In this document: positions 2,140-19,035 of the stretch, piece after piece
Position numbering within the stretch: position 1 is the first letter of the stretch
Layout: each line of letters starts with the position of its first letter
Source: a virus
Taxonomy: Duplodnaviria > Heunggongvirae > Uroviricota > Caudoviricetes
Length of the DNA: 19,035 bases
IMG/VR virus record: IMGVR_UViG_2645727555_000005
Span: 1 to 19,035 of that record
Direction: 5' to 3' (one strand)
Made by a program: the position numbers and the translations under genes
Notes under the pieces: generated by a model
The model's input: only the letters and a program-made list of their open reading frames with translations
What the model was told of the DNA's origin: nothing
Database searches by the model: none

Positions 2140-2142
2140 AAA

Positions 2143-2171
2143 GAAGCCCGCCATACCAAGCGGGCTTTTTG
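2143..2171. terminator. bidirectional intrinsic terminator between convergent operons
   Basis: AGCCCGC (2145-2151) / GCGGGCT (2160-2166) stem, 8-nt loop, T5 run on the plus strand and A/T-rich run on the other. Lies between the stop at 2139 (plus) and the stop at 2172 (minus). Confidence 0.6.
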
Positions 2172-2948: not shown

Positions 2949-2954
2949 GTCAAA

Positions 2955-3605: not shown

Positions 3606-3619
3606 AGCCTTTCCTCTGC

Positions 3620-4587: not shown

Positions 4588-4928
4588 CGACGCCCCCTTG
4601 CAGGATATCGACCTGCATTAGTATCCGGTGCAATAAAGCCGGTAGTGGGGCGAGTGAAAGCAAGATTAATCTTCTCGACCATAGTGCGATAATTTTCCTG
4701 ATAGTGGGCCAGGAGTTTTTCGGCGGCAATGATGGTTACTTTCCGGACGTAGCTTTCTGCTTCCGCCAGATTTCGCCAGTTTTTTTCGAGGGTAAACACA
4801 GGGACGGCCTCAAGCCCGGTCATGATGCCGAACACAACGACAGCATGACTGTTCTTAACACCAGCGGCGAAGGTTACGGTGTAACCATCCACCTTGAAGC
4901 GTCTTGATTCCGTGATTTGACTCTGCAA
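4584..4928 (-). CDS. hypothetical protein (114 aa), first gene of the dre-downstream operon
   Basis: TTG start at 4928 preceded by a strong AGGAGG 5 nt upstream; ATGA overlap with the next gene. Confidence 0.55.
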   Translation of the reverse strand: MQSQITESRRFKVDGYTVTFAAGVKNSHAVVVFGIMTGLEAVPVFTLEKNWRNLAEAESYVRKVTIIAAEKLLAHYQENYRTMVEKINLAFTRPTTGFIAPDTNAGRYPARGRR

Positions 4929-5001
4929 AGCACCCTCCTAAATAGGCGAGGGTACTTTACAGCAAAGGCGTTAATCTAAAAAGATGTGTTAGAAATTTAA
5001 T

Positions 5002-6030
5002 TTAAGAATCCATCAGGCGGCTATTAGCCCCCACAGACACGCCGCCACGGCGAAGATACCGCATAAGTGTTTCCGGTTTCTTCCAGGTTCCTTCCTGCAT
5101 GATCTCCACCATAGACACCTGCTTTTCAGCCATATCAATAGCGGCCCCGACGCGTGCACTATGCCCGGTCCACGTCCGGTATCTTCCTTTGTTTGGCGTA
5201 GCATCTCTTTTATTCAGCAACACCCAGGCGTCGCTGAATATTTTCTCCATTGCAGGTGCAGTAAGGGGCGTTGTCGTGAGCCTGGCCTTATTGCTACGGT
5301 GTATCGGCGGGAACAGCACTGCGTCAGGATGTTCGCGAAGCCCGGAAACATCCAGCCAGTCATTCAGCACAGCGGTAGTGCGACGGGAAAGCACCTTATC
5401 AAGCCCGGCGGCGGTCGTTATTGTCTTCGTGTGTGAAATATGTAGCGTGACAGTGTCACCTGTTTGGTCCAGATCTCCTACACGAATACGCGATATTTCC
5501 GACATACGCATCAGCGTATTGTATGCAACAAAGAGAAAAGCCCGGTTGCGCAGGTCCACCAGCCGTTCTGACCTGGACAGCAGGACGTCGAGCAGTTTCA
5601 GATCGTCCCACCGCAGCGGTATAGCCTGGCCTGTTCGTTCGCCTTTTTCAGTTGCCGCTTCGCGCCGGATGCGCCGCATAGCCAGAGAAACACTTTTATC
5701 ATCCGAAAGTGGTGGAAGGCCACAATGCGAAAGCAGCATGTTCAGCATGGCGTAGTGCTTATCAATGGTGGTCGAAGCCAGATCGGCATCATGCAGCTGA
5801 AGAAAATACTCGCGGGCCATTTCTGGTGAGATCGGAAACCAGGCAAGCTGGCGAGCGTGACACCAGCGCGCCCAGGAATGAAACACCAACCGGAGGTCGC
5901 GCAGAGTATTCGGCGCATAAGCCCCCTGGTCATTCATGAACCGCATAAAGTTTTCTGCGGCTTCCTGGTACTCTTTGCCAATGTTGCGCAGAAAACCACC
6001 GGAACTGCCAGAGATAATTAATTCACTCAT
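5002..6030 (-). CDS. dre: Cre-family tyrosine site-specific recombinase (Dre-like)
   Basis: 342 aa, collinear with P1 Cre. Catalytic positions conserved: Arg in AYNTLMRMSEISRIRVGD (Cre R173 region), H-x-x-R (GHSARVGAA), Trp (EGTW), Tyr nucleophile (MRYLRRG). Arm-binding regions diverge from Cre, consistent with altered site specificity. Confidence 0.92.
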   Translation of the reverse strand: MSELIISGSSGGFLRNIGKEYQEAAENFMRFMNDQGAYAPNTLRDLRLVFHSWARWCHARQLAWFPISPEMAREYFLQLHDADLASTTIDKHYAMLNMLLSHCGLPPLSDDKSVSLAMRRIRREAATEKGERTGQAIPLRWDDLKLLDVLLSRSERLVDLRNRAFLFVAYNTLMRMSEISRIRVGDLDQTGDTVTLHISHTKTITTAAGLDKVLSRRTTAVLNDWLDVSGLREHPDAVLFPPIHRSNKARLTTTPLTAPAMEKIFSDAWVLLNKRDATPNKGRYRTWTGHSARVGAAIDMAEKQVSMVEIMQEGTWKKPETLMRYLRRGGVSVGANSRLMDS

Positions 6031-6182
6031 GAAACTATTTCACCTCTATATACAGATGACGCTACGCGAAAAATATAAAAATGACAGGGTAGCTATAAGT
6101 TAATTTTCAAAATACAAGCCTTTGATTCGAGGCACGTATTTTCAGTGATGTCAACACTGTTCATCTACACATGATTATAGCC

Positions 6183-6214
6183 TAACTTTAAATAATGCCA
6201 ATTATTTAAAGTTA
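6183..6214. other. rox: rox-type recombination target site
   Basis: TAACTTTAAATAAT-GCCA-ATTATTTAAAGTTA: two perfect 14-bp inverted arms around an asymmetric 4-bp spacer. Outer arm bases resemble loxP (ATAACTT...AAGTTAT). Lies 152 bp upstream of the recombinase start. Matches the 32-bp rox site of Dre as I recall it. Confidence 0.85.
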
Positions 6215-6370
6215 TAAAATGGCGATTTTTTTTAATCCATCACAGATTGATTCTGACCAGTAACACGTTGCCTTCATGGTCTTTAATTTGCGAAGTGTGG
6301 TTTATACAGTTGGTTTTCTAAAATTGATGACAAAAAATCACAGTTCGATCCTTTACTCACTCTGTTATTC

Positions 6371-6384
6371 GACATAAATTTGTC
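6371..6384. promoter_or_regulatory. dyad element GACA-N6-TGTC in promoter region of the 345-aa gene
   Basis: GACATAAATTTGTC with AAATTT core, 40 bp upstream of the ATG at 6425 and overlapping a TTGTCA -35-like hexamer. Operator candidate only. Confidence 0.3.
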
Positions 6385-6424
6385 ATAGTAATTTTATGTT
6401 AGAAAACTAAATCGAGTAGGAATA

Positions 6425-7462
6425 ATGAGTAAGAAGTCGATCGAGAAAGAGTACAAACGGTTCCTGCAAACCGCTGAACGGTGGAAAGAGCTGGTGGTCG
6501 CAAACTCTGTTTTCCATGATACCAGTTATGCTGGCGAGGAATTCCGCCATGTTGCATTAACGCATGACCAAAACATATTAGAAGAAGCTGAAAAATGTCT
6601 TGCTGAATGGAAAGCCTTCGTTGACATGTGTCGCGATGCCGACGGCAAAGCGTCGAACATTGTTGAGTCTGTATATTCTCCGATCCCATTCATCATTGAG
6701 GACACCAATCAAAGCACGCATGTTGTTGTGCAAAGCGCTACAACAACACGTACATTTACACGTGAACAATTGCTCAAAAAATACGACAAAATCATAAAGA
6801 AAAGCCTGAAAAATAGGGTTTTTTCTCAAATCGTAGGTGCTCTTGAAGAAGAACAGCGCTTCTTTGAAGCTGAGCCTGAAGGCGAGATCTACCGGGCGCG
6901 TAAAGAGGCATATACAGATGTTGTGCTGACAACAAACATCGAAGGCAGCAATGCCCTTTCTCGCTTTAGAGTTGGCGCACATGGCGCATTGGTTTTCGCA
7001 AGACTACCGAAGACAACGATCCCCGTTGTCAATAATGTTGGTGAACGCCGGAGCATTACAATTTATTCTGGCGTCGAATCGGTACCTTGCAGCCTTCTCG
7101 GCGATTTTAACTTATATCGTGTTCGTGACCTGGAAAAACACCAGCCAAGCTACGTTGCGAAGTCGTACATCTTAAGGAACATCGATATTCGCAATGAAAG
7201 CCTTAAGCAGAAATCCGCTAAGATGCTGGAGGATGCCGATCCGGCTATTCGCCATATCATTGAGCGTAAGATACGTACATCACGTGAAGCAATGGCAAGG
7301 CTGGATAAAATGGATCTGGAATTGTTAGACGTAATGATGGCCTCTGGAGACGACCTGACCGGCATTAAACTAAATGAAGCTCGTAAAAAATACGGCAAAG
7401 CAATCGAAGAACGTTACGGATACACATTCCCCCAAACGCAGTACGCCGCGAAGCTCTGGTAA
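6425..7462 (+). CDS. hypothetical protein (345 aa) in the immunity-region slot
   Basis: ATG with AGGA RBS 6 nt upstream; own promoter region and own terminator. Lys/Asn/Ile-rich, lower GC than neighbours. No HTH or catalytic motif recognised. Convergent with pacB, divergent from dre across rox, which is the P1 c1 position by synteny. Confidence 0.8.
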   Translation: MSKKSIEKEYKRFLQTAERWKELVVANSVFHDTSYAGEEFRHVALTHDQNILEEAEKCLAEWKAFVDMCRDADGKASNIVESVYSPIPFIIEDTNQSTHVVVQSATTTRTFTREQLLKKYDKIIKKSLKNRVFSQIVGALEEEQRFFEAEPEGEIYRARKEAYTDVVLTTNIEGSNALSRFRVGAHGALVFARLPKTTIPVVNNVGERRSITIYSGVESVPCSLLGDFNLYRVRDLEKHQPSYVAKSYILRNIDIRNESLKQKSAKMLEDADPAIRHIIERKIRTSREAMARLDKMDLELLDVMMASGDDLTGIKLNEARKKYGKAIEERYGYTFPQTQYAAKLW

Positions 7463-7471
7463 TCACAACTG

Positions 7472-7497
7472 GCCCCGCATCGCGGGGCTTTATATAT
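7472..7497 (+). terminator. intrinsic terminator after the 345-aa gene
   Basis: GCCCCGC (7472-7478) / GCGGGGC (7482-7488) stem with 3-nt loop, followed by TTTATATAT. Overlaps the pacB stop codon on the opposite strand. Confidence 0.6.
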
Positions 7498-8998
7498 CCA
7501 GATCTGGCATTTCGATATCCGCCAGAACCTGATCTCGGAAAGTTGCCATTTCGGCACCAATATCTTCATTAGCAGGCACATAGTCCACCAGCATAGTGAA
7601 GCAGTAGGTATCCCATCGGTCAGGCGATTTGATGTTTAGCTTTTGCCGCATGTGCTCTTTGCGCATCATCGCCATTTTCCCTTCCTCATTCAGTAAAAAG
7701 GGGATTTTTGACGCTTGCTCTGCCGTTTTAGGGTCACTGTCTATCCGCATACGCCCTGACTTTATGGCATCACGCGCCATAATATTTGCGTAGGCACGCT
7801 GATTAACAAATCGCTCCCTGTCTTTGTTCGCAAACATGGGTTTTCCCCACCGAATACGTACCGGGTTCGCACCACGACGCACCAACTGCGCACACGCATC
7901 AGAACCAAAACCATCGGCATCAACCGCGATTGTTATATTCGGGTATTTTTCCGGCGTACATTCGTTATATATGAAGTCAGCAAAGGCCAATGGGTCCATA
8001 GTGCCAGGCATCTCCATTACCTTAAAGTTAACAACGCGCCGCTTATCCCTGTGACCAGATACCTTGCAGATGTTGAGGACCGACTTATCTCGCCCATTAC
8101 CAACGTCAGCCGTTGCCACCCATCCCCAGTTTTTCTCCAACAACACCTTGCGGCGAGCTGCGCGATCGCATTCATCACGACCAAGCAAATAGCCGTTAAT
8201 TTCTCGTGGGAACTGACCAAGCACCTTGACCATGTACTCAATAGAATCGCGCCCGCCATATTCCAGAAGCTTCTGCTTGATGAATTGTGGTGTGACGAAC
8301 GGTGATTCTTCCGAGTTAAGAACAATTGCTGTCCAGATCCCTTTCGGGTTGTCTGGGGTTTTTGCTTGAGAATGGTGCGAATCGTAGAAATAACCACTTG
8401 GCCTTGTTGGCTGGGATAGCATCAACATCCGGTTATCTTCTTCAGTAAGAGCACCGGTCATTACGCCGATCGCCTTATCAGATATACCAGATGCTTCATC
8501 CAGAATTAGAAGCAAATGTGCCGCATGTTCCCCCGCCAGCGCTTCTTCGTTGCCGAGTCGATAACCTTTGCAGAGAACTTCCCAAATCCCCTTACGGGAG
8601 CGCTCATAAAACATGGTGTCAGAGAGGACAAAATAGGTCTGCAACCACCCATGACGCTTAACTGCATTCGCCCAATACTGTTTAACGTATTTGAATACGC
8701 CTGTTTTTACCTGGCCTATCTTGTTAGCAACAATGATGACACGGGCATCGGGGAACAGGATCATAAAAATCAACAGCAACATCGCGGTAAGGGACGACTT
8801 CCCCGTTCCGTGTCCGGACGTGACGGTCGTCCTACTCCCCGTTTCCTGCACTGACTGAATGATCTGCTGCTGCTGGTGGGAGGGGAACATCCCAAAAATA
8901 TCGACAACAGCCTGGGTAAAGTTGTAGCGGTATTTGATTACCATATCGCGCCAGCGTGGATCGCTGGTGACGCATTTAATCTTGCGCCCGCCAGCCAT
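7490..8998 (-). CDS. pacB: terminase large subunit (PacB-like)
   Basis: 502 aa with Walker A GHGTGKS near the N-terminus and an acidic nuclease-type C-terminal half. Start overlaps pacA stop by 1 nt. P1-type order lpa-pacA-pacB. Confidence 0.9.
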   Translation of the reverse strand: MAGGRKIKCVTSDPRWRDMVIKYRYNFTQAVVDIFGMFPSHQQQQIIQSVQETGSRTTVTSGHGTGKSSLTAMLLLIFMILFPDARVIIVANKIGQVKTGVFKYVKQYWANAVKRHGWLQTYFVLSDTMFYERSRKGIWEVLCKGYRLGNEEALAGEHAAHLLLILDEASGISDKAIGVMTGALTEEDNRMLMLSQPTRPSGYFYDSHHSQAKTPDNPKGIWTAIVLNSEESPFVTPQFIKQKLLEYGGRDSIEYMVKVLGQFPREINGYLLGRDECDRAARRKVLLEKNWGWVATADVGNGRDKSVLNICKVSGHRDKRRVVNFKVMEMPGTMDPLAFADFIYNECTPEKYPNITIAVDADGFGSDACAQLVRRGANPVRIRWGKPMFANKDRERFVNQRAYANIMARDAIKSGRMRIDSDPKTAEQASKIPFLLNEEGKMAMMRKEHMRQKLNIKSPDRWDTYCFTMLVDYVPANEDIGAEMATFRDQVLADIEMPDLDI

Positions 8999-10362
8999 TA
9001 ATCATCCTCCGGCGGTTCTATCGCGATATCATCATCTCCGGCGTCATACCCTGCATCAGATGCATCATAATCACCGTAAATTTCAGCCGTTGCCGAAGGG
9101 TCAATATCCAGCTCTTCGTCGTTGGCCTCGAATTCTCCAGCTTTACGCTCGCCATTGCGGTCGTAATCTCCGCACCCCAATTCTTCAACAATGGTTGCCA
9201 CATCCGCCCGGCGCTCTGCCAGCCATTGCGGATGGTTAGCCTGAAGCGTTGCAAACTCCCTTGCCTCTTTGTCCAGCTGTTCATCATCAACATCATTGAC
9301 GTCAGAAACAGGTGGTTCGAGAAGAGTGATAGCTTTCGCCGCGCGCGCCGCGAGGATAGCCGGGACGCTGACCCCCTGGCGCTCGATGTATTCAGCAACA
9401 CCGATATCATCCAGTTCCTCGCGCTCACGCATACGTATAGCGGCGGCGATAACTCTGGCAGCGCGTGCGTCAGCGCCAATGCGATATTCAATCTCTTTGC
9501 CACGCTGTTCGGCCTGTAGGCGTGCTAATTCGAGTTTTTCTCTGGCCTCAGCCTCTTTGAATGCTTGCTGGCGAGCGCTCTGACGAAGCTTTTCATCCCC
9601 CTGTCGCAGCTTTTGTTCGGACTGATATATAGCTGCCAACCTACTGATAAAATCATTCATGTAGTAGGCCGCGTCACTGATTAGACCGAGAAGGCGCTGC
9701 CCAGGGTGCATTCCTTCTGGCTCTTTATCGCCCAAGGCGTCTATTTCCGCCTGTAGACGTTCGGCCTCCTGATCAACAATGCTTTGATACTGAAGTGCGC
9801 GCTCTTGCGCCATTTGAATTGCTAACCGCAGGTGTTCTTCTGCGCCGTTCTTCATCATATCGCGAGCCACATTCGTAGTGGGCAATGTGGCACGCTGCAC
9901 AGCACCGCCAGGGATCATTGCTGAAGATCCCTCAATTTTTGGGGCGCTTTTATCTTCTTCGGGGATCATTTTCGCCATTTTTTCGCGCAATGGTCTCCTG
10001 ACAGATTCTTTTATCTCATTGTTATTATTTGCATTATTTTCATGATCCGAAGTTTTCTTTCTCGGCATACTTCGGAAAGAACCTGCGCCCTGCGAATTGT
10101 CAATTTCTGTAAATTTTGTTTTTTCTGCACCCTCTTCCAGCTTTTTTGTTGCTCTTCCCGCCCGTTTTTTTTCAGGTGATTTGGTGCTTTTTTTTGTTGT
10201 CTTTACCTGCGACCGCACCTCATTTTTTTTCATATTGAGATGCTTTCTGGCTGTATTGAAGCTAAGGCCATGCTCCTCACAGTATTCCTTTACAGTGATC
10301 CCTTTTTCTTCACGCAACGCTATAAAGCGGGCGCGGTGCTCCTCCCAATTAACCAGACTCAT
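8998..10362 (-). CDS. pacA: terminase small / pac-recognition subunit (PacA-like)
   Basis: 454 aa. N-terminal HTH-like segment (WEEHRARFIALREEKGITVKEYCEEHGLSFNTARKHL) resembling the P1 PacA N-terminus; Lys-rich linker; central coiled coil; acidic C-terminus. ATGA overlap with lpa. Confidence 0.8.
   Translation of the reverse strand: MSLVNWEEHRARFIALREEKGITVKEYCEEHGLSFNTARKHLNMKKNEVRSQVKTTKKSTKSPEKKRAGRATKKLEEGAEKTKFTEIDNSQGAGSFRSMPRKKTSDHENNANNNNEIKESVRRPLREKMAKMIPEEDKSAPKIEGSSAMIPGGAVQRATLPTTNVARDMMKNGAEEHLRLAIQMAQERALQYQSIVDQEAERLQAEIDALGDKEPEGMHPGQRLLGLISDAAYYMNDFISRLAAIYQSEQKLRQGDEKLRQSARQQAFKEAEAREKLELARLQAEQRGKEIEYRIGADARAARVIAAAIRMREREELDDIGVAEYIERQGVSVPAILAARAAKAITLLEPPVSDVNDVDDEQLDKEAREFATLQANHPQWLAERRADVATIVEELGCGDYDRNGERKAGEFEANDEELDIDPSATAEIYGDYDASDAGYDAGDDDIAIEPPEDD
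9900..10050. other. candidate pac cleavage region (GATC hexamer cluster inside pacA)
   Basis: TGATCC-type hexamers on opposite strands at 9913-9916, 9964-9967 and 10044-10047, plus GATC at 9926, TGATCA at 9770 and TGATCC at 10297, flanking an A/T-rich core (10000-10040). P1 pac is a cluster of Dam-methylatable TGATCA/G hexamers inside pacA. Confidence 0.3.
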
Positions 10363-10751
10363 AAAGCAACACCACGCTTTTTAACGGCGGCATTCCACAG
10401 CTTATTCGCCATGTCCACCAGCTCTCGTTGCTCTTTTCGCGCCTGTTCGACTGATTTCCTGCTACAGTTTTTAACCAGTAAGCTACCGTATTCAGGCGTG
10501 CGCCCGCGCACCTTGAACTGATATCCGTTCAGACCATGTAGCCAGTATTTTCGTGGATACACACGATCATCCAGCTCACAGATTGCCCTGCTTGAACGAA
10601 CAAAATGACGAATGATGTTAGTTACACTTACTCGTGAAACATGGAGATGAGGGTATTTTTCTTTGGCGAGAGTGGTAATTTCAGTGACTGTCAGATAGCA
10701 GTCAGCCCTGATCATGATATCCGCAATTTCTGCGCTGCTGATTTGTTCCAT
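10359..10751 (-). CDS. lpa: late-promoter-activator-like protein (Lpa position)
   Basis: 130-aa ORF immediately upstream of and overlapping pacA, as lpa is in P1. TATAAT-containing promoter region upstream. Assignment is by synteny only. Confidence 0.5.
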   Translation of the reverse strand: MEQISSAEIADIMIRADCYLTVTEITTLAKEKYPHLHVSRVSVTNIIRHFVRSSRAICELDDRVYPRKYWLHGLNGYQFKVRGRTPEYGSLLVKNCSRKSVEQARKEQRELVDMANKLWNAAVKKRGVAL

Positions 10752-10859
10752 TAATCCCCCGGGCAGGAAATGACCGAGGGGATGATAATGAGAATGTTAA
10801 AACTGTATAGACTGGTAAAAAGATGATTATATTAGAAAATTAATATTAAATACCTAACA

Positions 10860-11252
10860 CTACCAGCGAGACAAACGAACAACATGTTTCACTTTTGCGA
10901 TCCACTTTCCGCGATAACTATTGATTACGGCCTGTGCCAGCTTCAAATTGGCTTCAAAATCAGCCTTACTACCATCAGACTCCACCAGCATTCCTCCATC
11001 TATTTCTGGTAAACATAGATAATCCTGCTCAACCTGCAGCGGCATTGATGGCTCTCTGAATGGCGTTACTTGCTCTGCTTTCCAGCGAAATCTAACCCTC
11101 ATCCCCCTGGTGGTCATTACTAGATAGCCTGTTATAGTGCTTTTATGGCCCACATCAGTACGCGTGGCATTGCATGACACGATCTTACAGTTAGCGATAG
11201 ACCACTCCATATTGGTGGCCTGTTGAGTGCTTAATTTGGTAGTCCCGTACAT
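10860..11252 (-). CDS. hypothetical protein (130 aa)
   Basis: ORF whose start overlaps the stop of the upstream DUF2829-like gene by 1 nt; no motif recognised. Confidence 0.55.
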   Translation of the reverse strand: MYGTTKLSTQQATNMEWSIANCKIVSCNATRTDVGHKSTITGYLVMTTRGMRVRFRWKAEQVTPFREPSMPLQVEQDYLCLPEIDGGMLVESDGSKADFEANLKLAQAVINSYRGKWIAKVKHVVRLSRW

Positions 11253-11827
11253 CAGAAAGCCTCCCAGTCAGTCGCGATAATATCCACACCAGTTGCAAAC
11301 CAGTCTGTCTGCGCCTGTAAATCCCCATTCATCATTACCAAGCGAGGCATCACCATCACATCGCACCCTTCCACAATATCGAATGCCTCTTCCGGTAAGA
11401 ATTCGAAGAGCTTTTCTTTGCTGCCAATGCTGCCACGGAACATCGATATATAGCTCCCTTTAGGCCATGATGTCCGCCGGGCATCAAGCCCTTTCATCAT
11501 CCAGTAAAAAGCCGAGGAAAAAGGGATATTCTTTTTGCCAATGATTACATTATTCGCTTCTGTGTACTTCAGGAACTTAACTAACCTTACCATTGACTCG
11601 GATAACGCAACGTATGGCTCATGATTGATTGCTGACACGCTTACACCGTGCAATCCAACGCTTACCACTGTCATATCGCCGCTCTGTGCGGTTTCGATAT
11701 TGACGCCTTTGCGAACTAATGAGGCGTAAAGTTCCTCTCGCTTTTGGGTCCAGCGTTCCCGCTTCCCTATGAAGTCACTCAAAATGAGATCTTCTTCTGC
11801 ATGTGCGTTATCGTTCGCCATTAACAT
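11252..11827 (-). CDS. hypothetical protein with C-terminal DUF2829-like domain
   Basis: 191 aa. C-terminal FSSAFYWMMKGLDARRTSWPKGSYI...DIIATDWEAF fits the same DUF2829 pattern as the 216-aa protein at 2955-3605. Near-palindrome CATCTCTCGG...CCGATAGAGATG at 11861-11890 just upstream. Confidence 0.65.
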   Translation of the reverse strand: MLMANDNAHAEEDLILSDFIGKRERWTQKREELYASLVRKGVNIETAQSGDMTVVSVGLHGVSVSAINHEPYVALSESMVRLVKFLKYTEANNVIIGKKNIPFSSAFYWMMKGLDARRTSWPKGSYISMFRGSIGSKEKLFEFLPEEAFDIVEGCDVMVMPRLVMMNGDLQAQTDWFATGVDIIATDWEAF

Positions 11828-12282
11828 AACGTCTCCTTTTTACACGCGCGACCATCTCTCGGTTAAACCGATAGAGATGTCGAAACTTCGTATTAATTAA
11901 GGGTTACAGCCTGAGCGGCTATATGATGAATTGAAAGGAGTTGTGGCGGTGGTGCCTCCACCTGCCAGGTCAGCCACGCCCGGCGACGACACTTATCAGA
12001 ACCTCAATGAATGAAAATGGCTTCGTCACGAGCGCATAGCCGCAATTACCACAACGGAAACGGCGCTCGCGTTAATTAAACGCCTTTTCCTGTTGTGCGC
12101 CGTACTCTTCCGGCTGTCACACCGAATCGCCAGGATGGTGAGTCCTCGGTCCGACGATATGAACGGGGCTTGCACATTCCGGCTACCTGGTTTGTTGCCT
12201 GAGCTAGGGGCAAGGTTCCCCCCTTTTAACGTCACCAGACCGCTAACGACGCATGTGCCAGACGCCGTGTTACAACCAAATG

Positions 12283-12358
12283 TGGTGGCCCCTACCGGAC
12301 TTGAACCGGTGACCGTGCGATTATGAGTCGCCAGCTCTAACCACTGAGCTAAAGGGCC
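12283..12358 (-). tRNA. tRNA with CAT anticodon, most like tRNA-Ile2 (lysidine, AUA decoder); elongator Met not excluded
   Basis: 76 nt incl. encoded CCA: GGCCCTT TA GCTC AGTGGTTA GAGC T GGCGA CTCATAA TCGCA CGGTC ACCGG TTCAAGT CCGGT AGGGGCC A CCA. G1-C72 pair, so not initiator. Closely resembles E. coli ileX as recalled. Confidence 0.85.
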
Positions 12359-12495
12359 AGATTACTGTTAATTCCGCTTACGCTTTTTGCCAGAACCGCG
12401 TAAGGCTTTTGCCGCTTGCTCGACCCCATATGCAACCACCAGCAAAAATAAAAATGTCCAACCAGGGTTCTTATCGGCAAACGCCCAAAAATTCA

Positions 12496-12819
12496 TCACT
12501 TACAGCCACCTTGCATTTCCTTGGATAATTCATTGATTTTAGTGCTCAATAAGTAATCAAAATAAAGATAAAACACAAAAGTAACGATAGTGCTTAAAGT
12601 GTCTGAAATTGCGTATTTCAGCTCAGGAAGCATGACAAAGCAGACAAATAGCGGAAGAAATAACTGCACTATGCACAGGCTCTTCTTCCACAACCATCTA
12701 TATCTGAAGTCTGACAACAAAAACTCCATTGCTTGAAACTTTATTAGATTGCGGTGCCTGGTGCCTCCAGGTGACGTTAACCAGTTAACAATTAACGTCG
12801 GGATGTTTGACTTAACCAC
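12496..12819 (-). CDS. possible small hydrophobic membrane protein (start uncertain, GTG 12819 or ATG 12729)
   Basis: Track ORF; the portion from the internal Met (MEFLLSDF...) is strongly hydrophobic. No convincing RBS. Located between tRNA genes. Confidence 0.3.
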   Translation of the reverse strand: MVKSNIPTLIVNWLTSPGGTRHRNLIKFQAMEFLLSDFRYRWLWKKSLCIVQLFLPLFVCFVMLPELKYAISDTLSTIVTFVFYLYFDYLLSTKINELSKEMQGGCK

Positions 12820-12979
12820 TAAGGAGGATTGTTTTAACTGTTCCGCGTGCGCTTAGCCGCATTCACCGCAATGGTAAGAGCACTTGGCTGGCTGGGCGGC
12901 GATGACGCCTGTACGCATTTGGTGATCCGGTTCTGCTTCCGGCATTCGCTTAATTAGCCAAATACTCTTAACGTTGCGA

Positions 12980-13066
12980 TGGCGGAGAGTAATGGAATCG
13001 AACCATCATCGCTTGCGCAATGGGACGGTTTTCAAGACCGCTTGAGCACCATGCTCCCTACTCTCC
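12980..13066 (-). tRNA. type-II (long variable arm) tRNA-like gene, anticodon TGA (Ser)
   Basis: 87 nt incl. CCA. 7-bp acceptor GGAGAGT/ACTCTCC, anticodon arm GCGGT CTTGAAA ACCGT, T-arm GATGG TTCGATT CCATT, discriminator G. D-arm is atypical (GAGC/GCTC stem, 5-nt loop, 3-nt linker), so needs a tRNA scan. Confidence 0.55.
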
Positions 13067-13261
13067 AGTGATTGTGGTGGTCGGTGCTGATCTCCGACAC
13101 AGGGTTGTAGCAAGCCCCGCAAAGCGCGCACTACTGTAGTTGCGGCACATCAGCCTGTGCATTCACCACAATGTTGAGAACACTGGTTGTCACGCGGCAA
13201 CGCAACATTTATTCATAGATTGGGATATGACCCCGTTACGCCAATGTTCTCAATATTATGT

Positions 13262-13337
13262 TGGTGCCGGTTAACGGACTTGAACCGCTGGCCATTCGCT
13301 TACAAAGCGACTGCTCTACCAACTGAGCTAAACCGGC
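13262..13337 (-). tRNA. tRNA-Thr (anticodon TGT)
   Basis: 76 nt incl. CCA: GCCGGTT TA GCTC AGTTGGTA GAGC A GTCGC TTTGTAA GCGAA TGGCC AGCGG TTCAAGT CCGTT AACCGGC A CCA. Canonical cloverleaf. Confidence 0.9.
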
Positions 13338-13341
13338 AATT

Positions 13342-13428
13342 TGGTGGGGAGTGATGGAGTCGAACCACCCGAGTCGCAATGACAGTAGATTTACAGTCTA
13401 CCCCGCTACCCCTACGGACTAACTCCCC
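13342..13428 (-). tRNA. type-II tRNA-Tyr (anticodon GTA)
   Basis: 87 nt incl. CCA. Acceptor GGGGAGT/ACTCCCC, anticodon arm GTAGA CTGTAAA TCTAC (same loop as E. coli tRNA-Tyr), long variable arm, T-arm GGTGG TTCGACT CCATC. D-arm spacing off by 1 nt from canonical. Confidence 0.75.
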
Positions 13429-13433
13429 TAAAT

Positions 13434-13510
13434 TGGCGATGGTGGGCGGATTCGAACCACCGACCGACAGCTTAGAAGGCTGCTGCTCTATCCTACTGAG
13501 CTACACCATC
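13434..13510 (-). tRNA. tRNA-Arg (anticodon TCT, AGA decoder)
   Basis: 77 nt incl. CCA: GATGGTG TA GCTC AGTAGGATA GAGC A GCAGC CTTCTAA GCTGT CGGTC GGTGG TTCGAAT CCGCC CACCATC G CCA. Canonical cloverleaf. Confidence 0.85.
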
Positions 13511-13964
13511 ACTTGCCGGGTACGTCTCCGGCGAGGGCTTCCACCTCCGTATGCTTTTCGGCGCACCGCGCCCTGGCTGCAATTCGGTAACAGGGGATGC
13601 ACAACCCTGGCTTCCAGCGTGATTAGCGCCTTCAGCATGACGGGATATACCCGTTACAAGACATTATCCCAGAAAGCCATTAACCAATGGCTGTTACGCG
13701 GGAGGGACGTAACAGGTAAGGGCGCTGACCAGAAAGACCTGACCCTTCTCATTCATCTGGTTAATCACACCAGCGCCCTTGCCTGTTATGCCTCCCCGTT
13801 CCCTAATACACAGACGGGGACACTCTGCGGTCGATTTTTTGACGGGGGACGACTCATACCCCGTGGCGTCTGGCTTCTTAGGCCGCTACCATCATCAGAT
13901 CATCGTTTGCATTTACTTTAATGGTCGGTTTCTAAACCGCCGCAAAGTCGCTAACCATGACGAA

Positions 13965-13994
13965 AACCCTAAAAAAGCCCACCCGAAGATGGGC
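13965..13994 (-). terminator. candidate intrinsic terminator inside the ORF-free segment (minus-strand sense)
   Basis: On the minus strand, hairpin GCCCA-TCTTCGGG-TGGGC followed by TTTTTTAGGGTTTTCG. Short 5-bp stem, so moderate confidence. Confidence 0.4.
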
Positions 13995-14013
13995 AAATAC
14001 GCTACATCTCACA

Positions 14014-14092
14014 CAAGAAAGAAGCCGACTGCCTGAGCTGGATTCACTTTCAAATGCCCGCTGAAAGGGATCACAAGTCGGCTTCTTTCTTG
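14014..14092. repeat. 17-bp perfect inverted repeat flanking a 45-bp spacer
   Basis: CAAGAAAGAAGCCGACT (14014-14030) and its exact reverse complement AGTCGGCTTCTTTCTTG (14076-14092). Confidence 0.85.
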
Positions 14093-14308
14093 ATGCGGCA
14101 CTCTCTCCGCCCGTCACCGCTCTGTCTCGGTTGTCGCGTTTGCCACGCCAGCCGTAACGAGGTTTAAAGTCTTTGCACGTTTCCATCACTCGACTGCCGT
14201 CTGTGGCTGTTCGTTGCAGCGGGGGTGCCTCCCCCTGGGGATATCCCCGGCCTTACCCCATTCTTTCAAGACACAATGCAAGGCCACATCCGCATAGGTG
14301 CATTACTG

Positions 14309-14373
14309 CAACATTAAGGAGACTCAGGGCAAAAGGTAACCGCCACAAAAATCCCTATGCCTCCTTAATGTTG
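14309..14373. repeat. 13-bp perfect inverted repeat flanking a 39-bp spacer
   Basis: CAACATTAAGGAG (14309-14321) and CTCCTTAATGTTG (14361-14373). Nearby GC palindromes GGGGGTGCCTCCCCC (14221-14235) and GGGGATATCCCC (14237-14248). Confidence 0.85.
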
Positions 14374-14684
14374 AAGATGTGCATTGATGATTAGATGCAG
14401 CATGTACCGTTACTCTCTGCCGGACCATCATCAATGAACACCTTAAAAAGACCTTCCGTGGCTCAACATGTATTGTCGTTTACTCCGCAAAGTGCTCTCT
14501 CTGAAACCACTTTCCGCACTAAACCTACTGAACTTTGGCCTGCACGGTGCCAAAGCGTGCTCTTGCGTTACTATACTTTTCTAACACTTTAATTTGTTAA
14601 ATGCTGGTGGGTGAACAATAACCAATAAGTGACTATCAAGCCCAGCAAGCGAAACGTGGGTACCGCCCACCAGCAAGGAAAATT

Positions 14685-15953
14685 CTATGTTAAGTTACCT
14701 TCACAATCAATACATTCGAATTGTGATTTTAGATTTCTAACACATTGTTTCCCGTAAAGATCTTCTACACCCCCATTCTTCTTATCCCATTCGTTCGCCC
14801 ATACCCGGCAAGCGTCAATGATTTCCTGACGACGATCTCCTTGCATGAACGGAATGCTTTCATGGAAACAGCTTGGAATGCAGGCCACACTGAATACAGT
14901 ATCAAACTCCGTCTGCTTGATTGCCTCCAGCGTCTCCGGACGCATTTTTAATTCATCGATTGGCGCATCCTTAGAGTCCATAATCCGGCGATATAAGCGC
15001 GGAAAATCCGTCTCCAGGTACGCCATAATTTTATCTGCGAGACATTCGTCTATGTCGGTATTCCAGTCCTTTTCGAAGCCCGGCAGGCGATAGTAAAGCG
15101 GCGTTCCCCATACCGATGGGATCACATCCATCGTTAACAGGCGATTGGTTCTGATTTGTTGATGGTAATTAGCCGTCAGCAGTGCTTCGCCACGCTGCCC
15201 AGTTTCCGCAACCAGGCCGTGCGGATACTCATGGATGTAGGCAATGGCATCCCTTCCGTCATACATAAGTGGAAATGTCTCTGGTCTTTGTCCCATGCCA
15301 CAAGCACGGTTCAGATCGTGACCAAGCTGTGAGCACTCTCGCTTTAATGTTTCGATAATGCTCTGCGCTGTAGCCAACTTTTTACGCAGTGTGACGCCTT
15401 CGCCTTGATAATCAATGCATTGCTGATTGAGCTTGGTTAAACGCTCTTTTAGTTCCCGGCGCTCTCTTTTCAGCGTGCGGTTATCCTTCTCCGCAACATC
15501 CAGCCGCTTTGTCAGGCTGGGCGGATAGTCTTTTTTGTAACGGTTCAAATCAGCTTCGGCAGATTTACGCAGTGTATTTGCCTGTTCAAGACGCGCTTCC
15601 AGATTGCCGATCTCATTACGCATATTCGCGGCAAATTGATTAACTGCATCGCCCAGGCTTTCAACTGTCGCTGATACGCCTGTGACTTGTGAAAAACGGA
15701 TCAAGCCATCATTAACGGCTTGTTGGTATTCCTCAAACTGATCCACCAGCTTATTGTAATCAACTGCCCCATCATCAAGCAGCTTGTTGATTTCCGCCAC
15801 CAGGTTATCTGTAGTGGCAATGACACTCTCGTGCAGTCGCTTTGACAGGTCATCACCCGGATTCCGTTTCTGTATAAGAGCGATTTGTGTGCGCAGCGTT
15901 TCAATTGCTGTCGAGATAATTTCCAGATTAGAAGTATCAGTGTGTTGACTCAT
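14685..15953 (-). CDS. hypothetical protein, N-terminal coiled coil plus C-terminal Cys-rich globular domain
   Basis: Track ORF 14685..15968 (GTG start); ATG at 15953 (MSQHTDT...) is more likely. About 200 aa of heptad-rich sequence, then a domain with clustered Cys/His (CIPSCFHE...CRVWANEW...CVRN...CIDCEGN). Own A/T-rich promoter region; terminators on both sides. Confidence 0.75.
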   Translation of the reverse strand: MSQHTDTSNLEIISTAIETLRTQIALIQKRNPGDDLSKRLHESVIATTDNLVAEINKLLDDGAVDYNKLVDQFEEYQQAVNDGLIRFSQVTGVSATVESLGDAVNQFAANMRNEIGNLEARLEQANTLRKSAEADLNRYKKDYPPSLTKRLDVAEKDNRTLKRERRELKERLTKLNQQCIDYQGEGVTLRKKLATAQSIIETLKRECSQLGHDLNRACGMGQRPETFPLMYDGRDAIAYIHEYPHGLVAETGQRGEALLTANYHQQIRTNRLLTMDVIPSVWGTPLYYRLPGFEKDWNTDIDECLADKIMAYLETDFPRLYRRIMDSKDAPIDELKMRPETLEAIKQTEFDTVFSVACIPSCFHESIPFMQGDRRQEIIDACRVWANEWDKKNGGVEDLYGKQCVRNLKSQFECIDCEGNLT

Positions 15954-16032
15954 TGCTGTTCCCGTCACTTTGTTAAATTAGTTTTCTAATATATTTTATT
16001 AGTTTGATGACGGTATCGGAAGATGCAATAAA

Positions 16033-16060
16033 CAAAAAACCCGCTAATTGGCGGGTTTTT
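16033..16060 (-). terminator. intrinsic terminator (bidirectional hairpin)
   Basis: AAAAAACCCGC TAATTG GCGGGTTTTT: 6-bp GC stem with A-run and T-run flanks, immediately downstream (minus sense) of the stop at 16059. Confidence 0.7.
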
Positions 16061-16385
16061 ATGCAATTACTGTGTTGCAGCCTGATAAATAAGATACGCG
16101 ATAAATACAGGTACGATGGCCCATTGCAGCAATGAAAGTAGCCTCATTCATTACTGTTATTGGGGTAACTCCATTCACGTATTGCTTCTCTGACATTTTC
16201 CCTAACCAACTAACCGACAACAGTGCCGAGTTTTCCCCCAATTCCAGCTCTCTGAGAGCTTCACGGATTAACGGCGCTGTCACAGCCTTAACCGGTGTGC
16301 TCAACGTGATACTCCGCGTCCTCCCCGCATCGTCAGCGAACGCCAGACTCACATAATATTTTTTGCTCAATGTACAAACTCCCAA
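16059..16385 (-). CDS. hypothetical protein (about 97-108 aa, start uncertain)
   Basis: Track ORF with TTG start at 16385, overlapping the upstream ORF by 19 nt; GTG at 16352 is an alternative start. Ends at the strong terminator. Confidence 0.45.
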   Translation of the reverse strand: MGVCTLSKKYYVSLAFADDAGRTRSITLSTPVKAVTAPLIREALRELELGENSALLSVSWLGKMSEKQYVNGVTPITVMNEATFIAAMGHRTCIYRVSYLSGCNTVIA

Positions 16386-16567
16386 TCATCAGCGCTTGCA
16401 CTTTCCGGGGTTATGTGAACCTTATCGCCAGTAACAATATTGCGAGCTTCAAAACTTCCATTGATACGTTTCGAGATCTCAATACATAGAGCCTGCTGCC
16501 ATGAGCGACGACGAGCGATAGCATTAGTTCCTGCAGGGATAAGTTCTGCCACGTTAAGTAAACGCAA
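16367..16567 (-). CDS. hypothetical small protein (66 aa)
   Basis: TTG start with GGAG 8 nt upstream, 14 nt after the VRR-NUC stop; no motif recognised. Confidence 0.4.
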   Translation of the reverse strand: MRLLNVAELIPAGTNAIARRRSWQQALCIEISKRINGSFEARNIVTGDKVHITPESASADDWEFVH

Positions 16568-16581
16568 AACGATTTCTCCGT

Positions 16582-17073
16582 TTAATCAAGACAAACATAT
16601 TCCGTGATAGCTTTTATGGCTTCAGCGGCACTGCGCGCCTCAAAGCAGTAGTAACCTGCTTCAGTGAGGCGAGTCATCCAGACGAGTTGTTCGGGAGTCA
16701 GGCGATTTCTCCCATGTTTCATCTCAATGCGCATTCCGTGGTATCCCCCGCAAGCAAGGTCTATAGAAAGATCGGGATATCCCTTCTTTTGGCCTTCTGC
16801 CACCATCTTTATTGCCGTCCTTATGCCTCGCAGACCGCCGTTTGGAGTGGCGTGAGTATGCTCATACACATAGCGCATATTGCGATACAACCAATCCAGG
16901 ACGCGAACCTGTTCGTAATGCTCATGGTTCCTTTTGATTAGATCTGGGTTTTTCTCCAGTTCTCTGAGAGCTGCGGCATGTGGGGATGTTTCAGAATATT
17001 CACTGCGACGCCTTCTTTTTCGCGCTATTTTTCTAACACACCCATTGATAGTAAATAAGCGAAATAATAACAA
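16582..17073 (-). CDS. VRR-NUC domain nuclease (PD-(D/E)xK superfamily)
   Basis: C-terminal ~100 aa fit the VRR-NUC pattern: EQVRVLDWL...HTPNGG...GYPDLSID...YHGMRIEMKHGRNRLTPEQLVWMTRLTEAGYYCFEARSAAEAIKAI. The only in-frame start is TTG at 17073, with no clear RBS. Confidence 0.7.
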   Translation of the reverse strand: MLLFRLFTINGCVRKIARKRRRRSEYSETSPHAAALRELEKNPDLIKRNHEHYEQVRVLDWLYRNMRYVYEHTHATPNGGLRGIRTAIKMVAEGQKKGYPDLSIDLACGGYHGMRIEMKHGRNRLTPEQLVWMTRLTEAGYYCFEARSAAEAIKAITEYVCLD

Positions 17074-17212
17074 CTACGTTAGATTTGTAAAACAAGAGAG
17101 ATACTACTCAAGGATGGGCTATATGCAACAGGTCGGATTTGCTTTTAGAGTAAAAAGTGACCTTAATCAACAAGGAGGGTAAATCGCATGGCATTTACCC
17201 AACTTGTTATTT

Positions 17213-17473
17213 TTAAAGGTTTATTTTATCCTGTTCGGATATTTCTGTGATTGTCTTGTCGATTGCGATCAACCACCCTTCATAGGTTAAATCATCAACA
17301 AGCTCTACCAGTTTGTCTTCTGTATGAGGGAAGTATACCCAGCTCCAGCTCGCTGGGTTTTCTGCTTTTCGCAGCGTAAAAACCTTCTTGTAACGGTGGA
17401 ACTCAAGGACATACCCCTTCGATATGGAATATTCCTTTAGGTCTTCGACCGTAAACCTACGATTCTTTCGCAT
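17213..17473 (-). CDS. hypothetical protein (86 aa)
   Basis: ATG start 2 nt after the upstream gene stop; no motif recognised. Confidence 0.5.
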   Translation of the reverse strand: MRKNRRFTVEDLKEYSISKGYVLEFHRYKKVFTLRKAENPASWSWVYFPHTEDKLVELVDDLTYEGWLIAIDKTITEISEQDKINL

Positions 17474-17475
17474 GG

Positions 17476-17910
17476 CTACCCCATGATTCGATATTTCTCT
17501 ATAGACTCGTCGTAACTTGTGTACACGTATGGCTCTGTATCATCAGCATAAGGTGCGACTTCCAGAGCATGAACGGGATTGTATACCGCGTCATTTTCCA
17601 GGCGATCGCTCGAATACAGATGCCCAGCCAAAACCGTAAGCGCCGGGCGACTCATTTTGTAGATCTCTGCCACATCACTATCTACAACTTGTCCAAATGA
17701 TATGTCGCCGCGCTCCAGCAATAACGTTTTAAGCGCAGGCCACCACGGCCCATAAAGGTGATAAAGCTGTGGATCTCGTTTCAGCCTTTCCACCATGCCA
17801 TTCAGATATGCATCCAGAAACGCCTCTTCACTCCTGCCATTGAGCGCCTGCGGCAAAATGTCCTCAAGGTAGGATTCCGTCGGTTTTACAGTGTCAATTA
17901 ATGTCGTCAT
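17476..17910 (-). CDS. hypothetical protein (144 aa)
   Basis: ATG start preceded by a GC hairpin and an upstream AAGGAG; acidic protein, no motif recognised. Confidence 0.6.
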   Translation of the reverse strand: MTTLIDTVKPTESYLEDILPQALNGRSEEAFLDAYLNGMVERLKRDPQLYHLYGPWWPALKTLLLERGDISFGQVVDSDVAEIYKMSRPALTVLAGHLYSSDRLENDAVYNPVHALEVAPYADDTEPYVYTSYDESIEKYRIMG

Positions 17911-17946
17911 TCAAATTCGGCCCCGGTTGGGGCCGCTCCTTATCTG

Positions 17947-18975
17947 TTAGGCCGCATCGGCGATTATTTTACGCAGTTCATCTACCGAGTAACGCGTAGA
18001 TACCATCCATGCAGGACGGTCAAAGTTCACATCAGCAACCGGGTTTGCTTCAAAATTCCAGAAACGCCCGCCAATCTTCTTAATCGCGTCTTTGGCGTTC
18101 CGTATTGTCGAGGAACCTGGTTGGTCGGCAATGAGATAAACCGCGCCAACGTCCTCGCTGACGCTCCACCAGCGCCCGCGAACACGCGCCTTAGCGCGAA
18201 TCGGCTTATCATTAACCACAATGATATAGTCATCATTCGCCGCTTCATCAGCTCTGGCTTCAGCCACTGCCGCCTGCTCTTCTCTTTTGCTTTCAGCCTG
18301 CTCAAGCCTTTCCGCGATCTCTGATTCAGTGGCCCCGCCGTTTTTCAGCGATACATAATCCTGCCACGTTGCCGATTTGAGCGTATCCGGCAACTCATTC
18401 ACATAGTCGCCGTCTTTCAACTCACGGGCGCGGCGGGTAGCCATTTCTACCAGGCGATTAACAGAAACAGCATCAGCAAAATCGTCCTTACTAATGTATT
18501 TTTCATCAAATGCATTGATGACAGCCCCCACCTTAATCCACTGTGCTGCCGGTGATTCCAGGGGGTTATCAGCCTGAACAATGGCGAGTTTCGCTCCATC
18601 TACCCCATTATTCGCCAGCTGTTCCAATGCCGCCCATCCATCTGCATCACTGAGTGATTTATATTGCTCAAACAATGCATCGCGCCAGGCCACCAGCGCA
18701 GAACGTGTTTTTTCGATCTTCGTCTTAATTTTCGCTATCTTGACCTGATTAAACATCCGTTCAATATCATCGATATTGCTAAAGGCTTTCATCCTGCCCT
18801 GGAATAAACGGTATGCCAGCACGGTCCTCCAGAATGATTCCAGACCTTCTCCGGACGGTTTGCGGAACAAGCTAAGAATATCTTCAGAAGTGACTTTATT
18901 AAGCGAACGACCTGACAGACCACGCCCAGCCATCCAGTTTTCCGAGTAGGCAGCCTGACGGCTGCGGCTTGTCAT
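17947..18975 (-). CDS. hypothetical protein (about 342 aa)
   Basis: Track ORF 17947..18984 starts with TTG; ATG at 18975 (MTSRS...) is preferred. Central Ala/Glu-rich helical region; no catalytic motif recognised. Confidence 0.65.
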   Translation of the reverse strand: MTSRSRQAAYSENWMAGRGLSGRSLNKVTSEDILSLFRKPSGEGLESFWRTVLAYRLFQGRMKAFSNIDDIERMFNQVKIAKIKTKIEKTRSALVAWRDALFEQYKSLSDADGWAALEQLANNGVDGAKLAIVQADNPLESPAAQWIKVGAVINAFDEKYISKDDFADAVSVNRLVEMATRRARELKDGDYVNELPDTLKSATWQDYVSLKNGGATESEIAERLEQAESKREEQAAVAEARADEAANDDYIIVVNDKPIRAKARVRGRWWSVSEDVGAVYLIADQPGSSTIRNAKDAIKKIGGRFWNFEANPVADVNFDRPAWMVSTRYSVDELRKIIADAA

Positions 18976-19035
18976 GGTCTGCAATTACCGTTATAAAAAC
19001 AGGCAATGTCATTGTCTTTCAGGTGGTTATATGGC

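Follow-up and report, generated by a model that had tools for sequence, protein, structure and literature searches.

The window analysed here is a 19,035-nucleotide (nt) stretch of viral DNA (IMG/VR record IMGVR_UViG_2645727555_000005, positions 1 to 19,035) that belongs to a D6-like relative of phage P1, a phage-plasmid that exists as a plasmid prophage of E. coli. It carries five tRNA genes in a single orientation, and this array belongs to the known P1/D6 tRNA cluster, itself one case of the phage tRNA arrays; it has been annotated in databases and is otherwise undescribed. We consider it probable that the array serves mainly to supply codon decoders from an early, repressor-controlled operon, and that its arginine gene was derived in place from an asparagine gene. 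To the existing annotation we add a very probably chimeric Asn-to-Arg allele, the placement of the serine gene in the (8/4) class of tRNAs, a near-perfect match between the anticodons and the codon demand of the element, and a combinatorial slot structure shared with related arrays.

Gene calls and layout of the array

Searching the whole window with ARAGORN returns exactly five tRNA genes, all on the minus strand and all with an encoded 3' CCA:

13434..13510, minus strand: tRNA-Arg(UCU), 77 nt with encoded CCA; ARAGORN; RF00005 69.2 bits
13342..13428, minus strand: tRNA-Tyr(GUA), class II, 87 nt, A73, CCA; ARAGORN; RF00005 41.9 bits
13262..13337, minus strand: tRNA-Thr(UGU), 76 nt; ARAGORN; RF00005 69.0 bits
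12980..13066, minus strand: (8/4) tRNA-Ser(UGA), 87 nt, G73, CCA; ARAGORN; tRNA-Sec model 44.6 bits
12283..12358, minus strand: tRNA-Ile2 (CAU), 76 nt; ARAGORN; RF00005 64.7 bits

A previous sequence-only reading of the window had proposed five minus-strand tRNA genes, with Arg, Tyr and Thr packed at spacings of 4-5 nt. ARAGORN places them at the same coordinates with the same anticodons, and the spacers measure 5 nt between Arg and Tyr (ATTTA) and 4 nt between Tyr and Thr (AATT); the loci are therefore confirmed as real tRNA genes. Complete cloverleaves and identity elements are kept in all five. Counting as members of the general tRNA family RF00005 those genes with a full-length cloverleaf and a score at or above the gathering threshold of 29 bits, Rfam calls four of the five (Arg, Thr, the CAU gene and Tyr, with E-values from 1e-13 to 5e-6). 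The tRNA-caller check suggested by the sequence-only reading thus succeeds for all five genes with ARAGORN and misses Ser with RF00005, because the (8/4) fold of that gene, described below, is non-canonical and not because the gene has decayed. What that reading overlooked is that Arg appears to be a remoulded tRNA-Asn allele, that Ser is an (8/4) tRNA and that the five-gene set was already annotated in relatives.

Along the minus strand, a pmgS-like gene and a 1.2-kb leader are followed by Arg-Tyr-Thr, a repeat, Ser, a second repeat, orf77, a tciC-like open reading frame (ORF), Ile2 and a third repeat, and then by a Tad2-like gene, orf130, lpa, pacA and pacB. The window is 98.7% identical over 97% of its length to pVP441, an E. 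coli plasmid, and about 80 further complete plasmids resemble it; phages D6, P7 and P1 are also matched. In the close relatives pKOr024_2 and pVP441, this set of five tRNAs is already annotated by the Prokaryotic Genome Annotation Pipeline (PGAP), as Ile, Ser, Thr, Tyr and Arg.

A probably chimeric arginine tRNA on an asparagine-type scaffold

The first slot of the array holds tRNA-Arg(UCU) where relatives hold tRNA-Asn. The 90 nt preceding the window's Arg gene also precede, without a difference, the tRNA-Asn gene of Ro157c2YLVW; over its 1190 nt, the leader matches that of D6 at 99% identity right up to D6's Asn gene; and the 3' flank is identical in all arrays aligned. Within the gene itself, alignment with the Asn alleles shows that the first 15 and the last 33 nt match while the D-loop and the anticodon arm differ. 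The Arg gene is thus Asn-type in its flanks, acceptor stem, D-stem and T-arm, and Arg-type only in its D-loop and anticodon arm. In the alignment, the D-loop changes from AGC--GGTA in the Asn alleles to AGTAGGATA in the Arg gene; written as RNA, the Asn alleles have AGCGGUA, and the Arg D-loop, AGUAGGAUA, supplies A20. The anticodon is UCU and the discriminator base is G73.

Segment by segment, the two parentages separate clearly. The outer segments are identical to the Asn genes of P1, N4, SSU5, CMS-2020a and Ro157 at 15/15 and 28-31/33 positions, as against 8-10/15 and 17-21/33 for Arg genes. The inner 29 nt show only 16-17/29 identities to the same Asn genes, as opposed to 27/29 to a crAss-like phage tRNA-Arg, 25/29 to the Arg gene of phage phita32 and 23/29 to argU. 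Searches of 50,697 phage genomes gave the same picture: the best matches to the whole gene are tRNA-Asn genes, at no more than 81.8% identity, and the best matches to the central 44 nt are tRNA-Arg genes, at 90-95%.

The main identity elements of arginyl-tRNA synthetase (ArgRS) are A20, C35 and U36, and asparaginyl-tRNA synthetase needs the GUU anticodon. The product of the slot-1 gene should therefore be an arginine acceptor, since the swapped tract brings in A20 and C35/U36 and removes the GUU anticodon. Taken together, these comparisons make it very probable that the slot-1 gene is a natural chimeric tRNA, in which a foreign tRNA-Arg D-loop and anticodon arm sit on a resident tRNA-Asn scaffold. 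The exchange of the roughly 29-nt tract for its tRNA-Arg(UCU) equivalent would have taken place within the resident gene, and it looks like gene conversion from a tRNA-Arg donor.

A scan of IMG/VR for genes sharing the scaffold points to one recent origin of the Arg allele from an Asn gene. With the shorter spacing, every gene found is Asn (19 variants in 138 instances); with the longer spacing, which admits 77-nt genes, a single sequence is found, the Arg allele, and it is the only non-Asn gene recovered. The allele is present in 83 PLSDB plasmids (75 Escherichia, 8 Salmonella) and in about 68 of 5,426 complete E. coli genomes, where it is invariably plasmid-borne. None of the 83 plasmid copies is 100% identical to that of the window, which carries a private A63-to-G change in the T-stem, turning the U51-A63 pair into U51-G63.

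As for the donor of the patch, no chromosomal tRNA-Arg more than 89% identical to it was found in the 5,426 E. coli genomes, prophages included, and the nearest match in the phage database lies in a crAss-like phage (95% over 42 nt). The rV5-like phages were considered as a source of the Arg gene and rejected: the whole gene is just 68% identical there, with the likeness limited to the anticodon arm.

Alloacceptor tRNA remoulding and anticodon shifts are known from mitochondria and from eukaryotic nuclear genomes (PMC4783518, PMC3923123). As in those cases, a syntenic tRNA is closer overall to another acceptor family, here Asn, than to tRNAs with its own anticodon, and the Arg gene combines a syntenic Asn slot and this closer relation to the Asn family with the gain of ArgRS identity elements. 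The classical cases differ in that they consist of anticodon point mutations in a duplicate gene, whereas here a contiguous tract spanning the D-loop and the whole anticodon arm has been replaced, and this in a phage-plasmid array.

The anticodons match the codon demand of the element

We compared codon usage in 108 coding sequences (24,785 codons) of pVP441 with that of MG1655 genes, ranking the 61 sense codons by enrichment, and also used a larger E. coli reference of 130 ORFs and 43,055 codons. The codons most enriched in pVP441 over E. coli are AGG, AGA, AUA, ACA and UCA, which take ranks 1-5 of 61. They still do so against the larger reference, with ratios of 4.4 (AGG), 3.4 (AGA), 3.9 (AUA), 2.8 (ACA) and 2.1 (UCA). 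Four of the tRNAs, Arg(UCU), Ile2, Thr(UGU) and Ser(UGA), are cognate to these five codons. If five codons were picked at random, four of them would land among the five most enriched with a probability of about 5e-5. In the 17 ORFs of the window itself, the codon densities are the same as in pVP441.

The claim that Arg(TCT) and Ile2 decode codons rare in the host is thus borne out, with AGG, AUA and AGA all within the top five, and the match is stronger than had been supposed. It gives strong support to codon compensation, a common feature of phages. The array would accordingly serve mainly to provide more decoders for A/U-rich codons that are overused relative to the E. coli or Salmonella host, with Arg(UCU) reading AGA/AGG, Ile2 reading AUA, Thr(UGU) reading ACA and Ser(UGA) reading UCA.

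The same comparison bears on the exchange in slot 1. Asn codons are only mildly enriched (AAU 1.7-fold, AAC 0.95-fold), and AGA is used as often in relatives with the Asn allele (6.6 per 1000) as in carriers of the Arg allele (6.5 per 1000). The switch to Arg would therefore serve a demand that already existed and, given that AGA use is high regardless of the allele, the largest unmet one.

The serine tRNA adopts an 8/4 fold

The Ser gene is unmatched by RF00005; among Rfam families it comes closest to tRNA-Sec, with 44.6 bits, which falls short of the cut-off of 47. It folds with an 8-base-pair (bp) acceptor stem, a 4-bp T-stem and a 4-bp D-stem closing a 5-nt loop; the variable stem has 6 bp, all of which covary, and a GCAA loop, and the gene has G73 and a UGA anticodon. 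Homologues were collected by a pattern scan of IMG/VR, which yielded 37 distinct sequences whose anticodon arm is invariant by construction of the search. When these are laid on the 8/4 cloverleaf, 98.5% of cells are paired and 19 of the 27 pairs show compensatory changes. The two diagnostic positions agree: pair 8-83 is AU in 33 homologues, GC in three and something else in one, and pair 47-67 is CG in 33 and UA in four. On the other hand, the 7/5 fold that we tried for this tRNA was rejected, as its pair 67-83 is G-U in 32 homologues and broken in three, with no compensatory change.

By its predicted fold, the gene belongs to the (8/4) tRNA-Ser class of Mukai et al., described from "certain bacteria and their phages" (Mukai et al. 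2017, PMC5389517), and related allo-tRNAs work in E. coli (Mukai et al., PMC5389517). The window gene shares with this class the 8-bp acceptor and 4-bp T-stem, the long variable arm, the short D-loop, G73 (U73 in some homologues), a Ser anticodon and a phage location, and, as with the allo-tRNAs, its first detection was as a spurious tRNA-Sec match. It differs in its setting, E. coli/Salmonella phage-plasmids and rV5-like coliphages, and in having a D-stem of 4(-5) bp with a loop of 4-5 nt. The 8/4 fold also explains the GenBank note on D6 that tRNAscan-SE called no amino acid for its Ser gene. Seryl-tRNA synthetase would recognise the long variable arm together with G73.

The Ile2, Thr and Tyr genes

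The CAU gene is identical to P1 trnI at 76/76 positions, 89.5% identical to E. coli ileX and 71.4% identical to metT. Its anticodon stem-loop (positions 27-43) is that of E. coli ileX and not of the Met type, and its acceptor stem, GGCCCUU/AGGGGCC, has C4-G69 and C5-G68 where metT has U4/A5. These two pairs are reported by Ikeuchi et al. (2005) to be used by TilS to tell Ile2 from Met. PGAP names the gene tRNA-Ile in relatives, and by these sequence features we assign it to tRNA-Ile2, whose CAU anticodon is expected to be converted to lysidine-AU by the host TilS.

Thr(UGU) is 72% identical to E. coli thrU. We compared the window gene (13262-13337) with the survey loci L001-L230 and found two types of Thr allele in P1/D6-like arrays, with anticodon stems CCUGC/GCAGG (P1) and GUCGC/GCGAA (window). 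The window's allele, which we call type B, reads U36 A A G39 C40 G41, as compared with U39 and A41 in host thrU. Nearly all differences between the two types fall in the anticodon stem, and the remainder of the gene is the same. This dimorphism shows the same pattern of a module on a constant scaffold as the Arg/Asn pair.

The Tyr gene has the anticodon loop of its host counterpart and an anticodon stem that differs from it by one pair. Its slot is optional across related arrays. Over dozens of contigs, the alleles of Ile2 and Tyr show almost no variation.

A modular array shared by P1-like and D6-like elements

The statement in the sequence-only reading that P1 carries fewer tRNAs (Asn, Thr and Ile), so that the set differs, agrees with the P1 record, which has three tRNAs to the window's five. 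The P1 array (NC_005856) reads Asn-Thr...tciABC-Ile2, that of D6 (NC_050154) Asn-Thr...Ser...Ile2 and that of Ro157c2YLVW Asn-Tyr-Thr...Ile2. In the IMG/VR contigs with this slot-1 scaffold, the slot states occur in free combination: Asn or Arg comes first, Tyr may follow, then comes Thr, Ser may be present, and Ile2 closes the array. The array is thus modular, with Asn or Arg in slot 1, Tyr and Ser optional, and Thr and Ile2 near-constant.

The window's array is of the same locus type as the P1 ban operon and has the same orientation. The two share an Ile2 gene without a single difference, a homologous Thr gene (66/77), a homologous slot-1 scaffold, a tciC-like ORF directly upstream of Ile2 and about 490 nt of leader that are 91% identical; P1 has repressor operators upstream of the array, and the window has putative ones. 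The window differs in having Arg in place of Asn and the added Tyr and Ser, in its downstream genes (Tad2-like, lpa and pacAB, the D6 arrangement, where P1 has ban), and in a putative operator motif unlike the P1 C1 consensus. With D6 and the D6-like plasmid prophages, it shares the backbone, a leader that is 99% identical as far as the first base of the tRNAs, and the 8/4 Ser and Ile2 genes; D6 itself has a P1-type Asn in slot 1 and no Tyr. For the D6-like plasmids, four tRNAs have been published (Asn, Thr, Ser and 'Met'; PMC6799933), whereas the Arg-Tyr-Thr-Ser-Ile2 version is annotated only in database records.

A cluster of nearly the same specificities is found in the rV5-like coliphages, where phita32 carries Arg-Tyr-Ser-odd-Thr-Met(cat)-Pro. 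Its Tyr and Ser genes are 93% and 90% identical to those of the window, while identity drops to 68-71% for its Arg, Thr and CAU genes, the gene order differs and the phages are virulent. The odd member of the phita32 cluster (PQ758395.1; locus L020, 2387-2483, minus strand) is an irregular 97-nt tRNA-like gene. Its 6-bp D-stem closes a 4-nt loop, its variable arm is long, and its anticodon loop is rich in U (UUUUUAA); the gene reaches 35.5 bits with RF00005, and no amino acid could be assigned to it by ARAGORN.

Leader and putative operators

In the P1 record (NC_005856), the C1 operator Obanab and the Pban promoters are annotated upstream of the tRNAs. The P1 C1 operator consensus, ATTGCTCTAATAAATTT, has no match in the window at up to 3 mismatches. 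A different 16-mer, TGTGTTAGAAAANTAA, occurs at eight sites in the window where 0.64 are expected, as found by a motif scan:

4985-5000, 6395-6410, 10828-10843, plus strand: 16-mer sites
14573-14588, 14729-14744, 15978-15993, 17025-17040, 17079-17094, minus strand: 16-mer sites

Some of them forming inverted pairs, these sites lie upstream of a c1-like repressor gene (6425-7462), lpa, the tRNA leader (twice) and the pmgS-like gene, and in pVP441 the motif also lies upstream of the ref and icd homologues. We propose that the 16-mers are probably D6-type C1 operators. The possibility that they mark Lpa-type late promoters, as in P1 LPpac, was dropped because the genes that they precede, those for the repressor, lpa, ref and icd, correspond to the C1 regulon of P1. 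Two of the 16-mers, at 14573-14588 and 14729-14744, overlap -10-like hexamers, and the interval 14573..14744 (minus strand) is likely to be the repressor-controlled promoter region of the operon that holds the array.

By analogy with the P1 ban operon, we infer that the array is expressed early and under repressor control. The five genes would form part of a long early transcription unit, silenced by the prophage repressor until lytic induction turns it on. The precursor would then be cut by host RNase P and 3' trimming enzymes, giving mature tRNAs that already carry the encoded CCA.

The 1.2 kb of leader (13511-14684, minus strand) are non-coding and contain hairpins with 27-nt arms (13701-13797), a perfect 17-bp stem (14014-14092) and 31-nt arms (14299-14383). 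Its 490 nt nearest the tRNAs are the part resembling P1, where the upstream end of this stretch overlaps a "dicF-like region". At the start of the homologous stretch lies the following feature:

13977..13994, minus strand: terminator-like hairpin with T-run

No Rfam family was matched within the leader at 13511-14684. A DicF-like small RNA was rejected, since no Rfam match appeared even at E = 5 and the likeness to P1 is limited to the region of the terminator hairpin.

Repeats, cargo slot and neighbouring genes

The tRNA modules are accompanied by a repeat of about 115-135 nt that occurs three times, in each case just 3' of a tRNA module, and by the following genes:

13071..13184, minus strand: STnc100/PasD-like repeat copy 1, between Thr and Ser; repeat family D2; no score from Rfam
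12748..12884, minus strand: STnc100/PasD-like repeat copy 2, 3' of Ser; RF02076 38.4 bits (cut-off 47), E = 2e-6
11940..12067, minus strand: STnc100/PasD-like repeat copy 3, downstream of Ile2; repeat families D2 and D5
12496-12729, minus strand: orf77, 77 amino acids, predicted membrane protein, no family match
12368-12496, minus strand: TciC-like ORF, 42 amino acids; 39% over 33 amino acids to TciC, E = 5e-8
11252-11827, minus strand: Tad2-like gene (PF11195, formerly DUF2829), first gene downstream of the array; Pfam 39.1 bits against a cut-off of 25
2955-3605, minus strand: second Tad2-like gene, DUF2829 by the pVP441 annotation only

Only 4 nt separate copy 1 from the 5' end of the Ser tRNA. 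The closing helix of the repeat, AUUGYGGUG...CACCRCAAU, covaries between copies 1 and 2, and the three copies had z-scores of 0.0, -1.5 and -0.25, none of them significant as thermodynamic support. STnc100 (RF02076), a family of prophage small RNAs, has been linked to the PasD small RNAs of Stx prophages (2026 preprint). The genes orf77 and the TciC-like ORF overlap at a TGATG junction, and the interval between Ser and Ile2 that they fill (12368..12729) is a variable cargo slot, occupied by tciA/tciB in D6 and by an SPFH-domain gene in pVP441.

Outside the window, pVP441 carries a glnS gene for glutaminyl-tRNA synthetase (locus L022, 14088-15749) with host-like codon usage: the five phage-preferred codons amount in it to about 2 per 1000, compared to about 50 per 1000 plasmid-wide, which fits a recent host origin.

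Codon supply and the alternatives

Several observations weigh against an array that supplies codons from an early operon. Tyr codons are unenriched (UAU 1.25-fold and UAC 1.10-fold, ranks 24 and 33 in the larger reference), and the codon ratios derive from a close relative and 150 kb of K-12 and not from whole genomes. Immediately upstream of the array, no strong sigma-70 promoter was detected, and the hairpin at 13977-13994 stands between the putative promoter and the tRNAs, as it also does in the homologous leader of P1. The survey loci were fetched by sequence pattern, so that counts of array types are not frequencies. In the morphogenesis genes, finally, ACA and UCA are only modestly higher and AGA and AGG are lower. 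This last result argues that the benefit is not specifically for late genes, and the P1 analogy places the array in an early operon; the earlier description of the array as support for late gene expression is therefore too narrow.

The principal alternative is that the array acts in counter-defence or as insurance, replacing host tRNAs that are cut or depleted by immune systems or colicins, either by the amount supplied or by variants of the anticodon stem that resist the nuclease. Published targets coincide with members of the array: PARIS AriB targets Lys, Thr-UGU and Asn-GUU (PMC11464382, PMC12409363), and retron-Eco7 (PtuAB) depletes tRNA-Tyr, with a phage tRNA-Tyr rescuing infection (PMC11555353). 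Colicin E5 (Tyr/His/Asn/Asp) and colicin D (Arg) are further candidate agents. T5 variants altered at 39 and 41 escape PARIS AriB (PMC12409363), and the window's Thr differs from host thrU at both of these positions (G39, G41), in a set of related alleles that vary almost only in the anticodon stem, although any diverged tRNA is likely to differ somewhere in that stem. Tyr is the one member without a codon-usage explanation, and the adjoining downstream gene has a Tad2-like anti-Thoeris domain. The array thus resembles the T5 tRNAs that neutralise PARIS and retron-Eco7 (PMC11464382, PMC12409363, PMC11555353) in that Thr(UGU), Asn(GUU) and Tyr are phage-encoded and in that its Thr is substituted at the AriB-critical positions; it differs in lacking tRNA-Lys, the primary PARIS and PrrC target, and in its anticodon loops. 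Those of Arg, Tyr, Ser and Ile2 are the host's, as is the whole Ile2 anticodon stem-loop, which matches ileX, so that nucleases reading the loop would cut the phage tRNAs too. The P1-type Asn, moreover, keeps the optimal AriB site U-A-A-U-C-A. We therefore regard counter-defence as unlikely to be the main role of the array, and as a plausible secondary function, mainly of Tyr and Thr, that is compatible with codon supplementation.

A third view would give the genes little role in translation, as processing punctuation or stabilisers of a long early transcript, or as hitch-hiking remnants of recombination or integration. The tRNAs do alternate with protein genes and with three repeated structured elements, all sharing one direction of transcription, and slots are gained and lost between relatives. 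Yet all five genes retain full cloverleaves, identity elements and CCA, their stems evolve through compensatory changes, the Ile2 and Tyr alleles hardly vary over dozens of contigs, and the anticodons match the top-ranked codon demand. Unlike an attachment-site remnant, no gene is truncated, and that origin is ruled out because each is full length. We consider this view highly improbable, and supply of decoders for the overused codons, perhaps with protection as an accessory role, remains our preferred account.

Implications

The role of phage tRNAs is debated between compensation for codon usage and a counter-measure to tRNA-cleaving immunity, and the array described here is a clean natural test of both ideas. 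For compensation, four of its members fall on the top five overused codons and Tyr does not fit; for immunity, Thr varies almost only where a known immune nuclease cuts.

The Asn-to-Arg allele suggests a one-step re-assignment of a tRNA scaffold to a new amino acid through a cassette of anticodon arm and D-loop. Such chimeric tRNAs have been deliberately built by synthetic biologists. Considering the Arg/Asn and Thr alleles together, we tentatively raise the idea, without holding it the likelier outcome, that phage-plasmid tRNA arrays evolve by recurrent, selected swapping of anticodon-arm modules on constant scaffolds. Selection would then act to retarget codon supply, from AAY to AGR, and/or to escape nucleases of the anticodon arm such as PARIS AriB.

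The Ser gene places an 8/4 tRNA-Ser in a genetically tractable E. coli system. Finally, given how common D6/P1-like phage-plasmids are in clinical and livestock E. coli and Salmonella, and that they can harbour resistance genes, the tuning of their lytic fitness is of practical interest.

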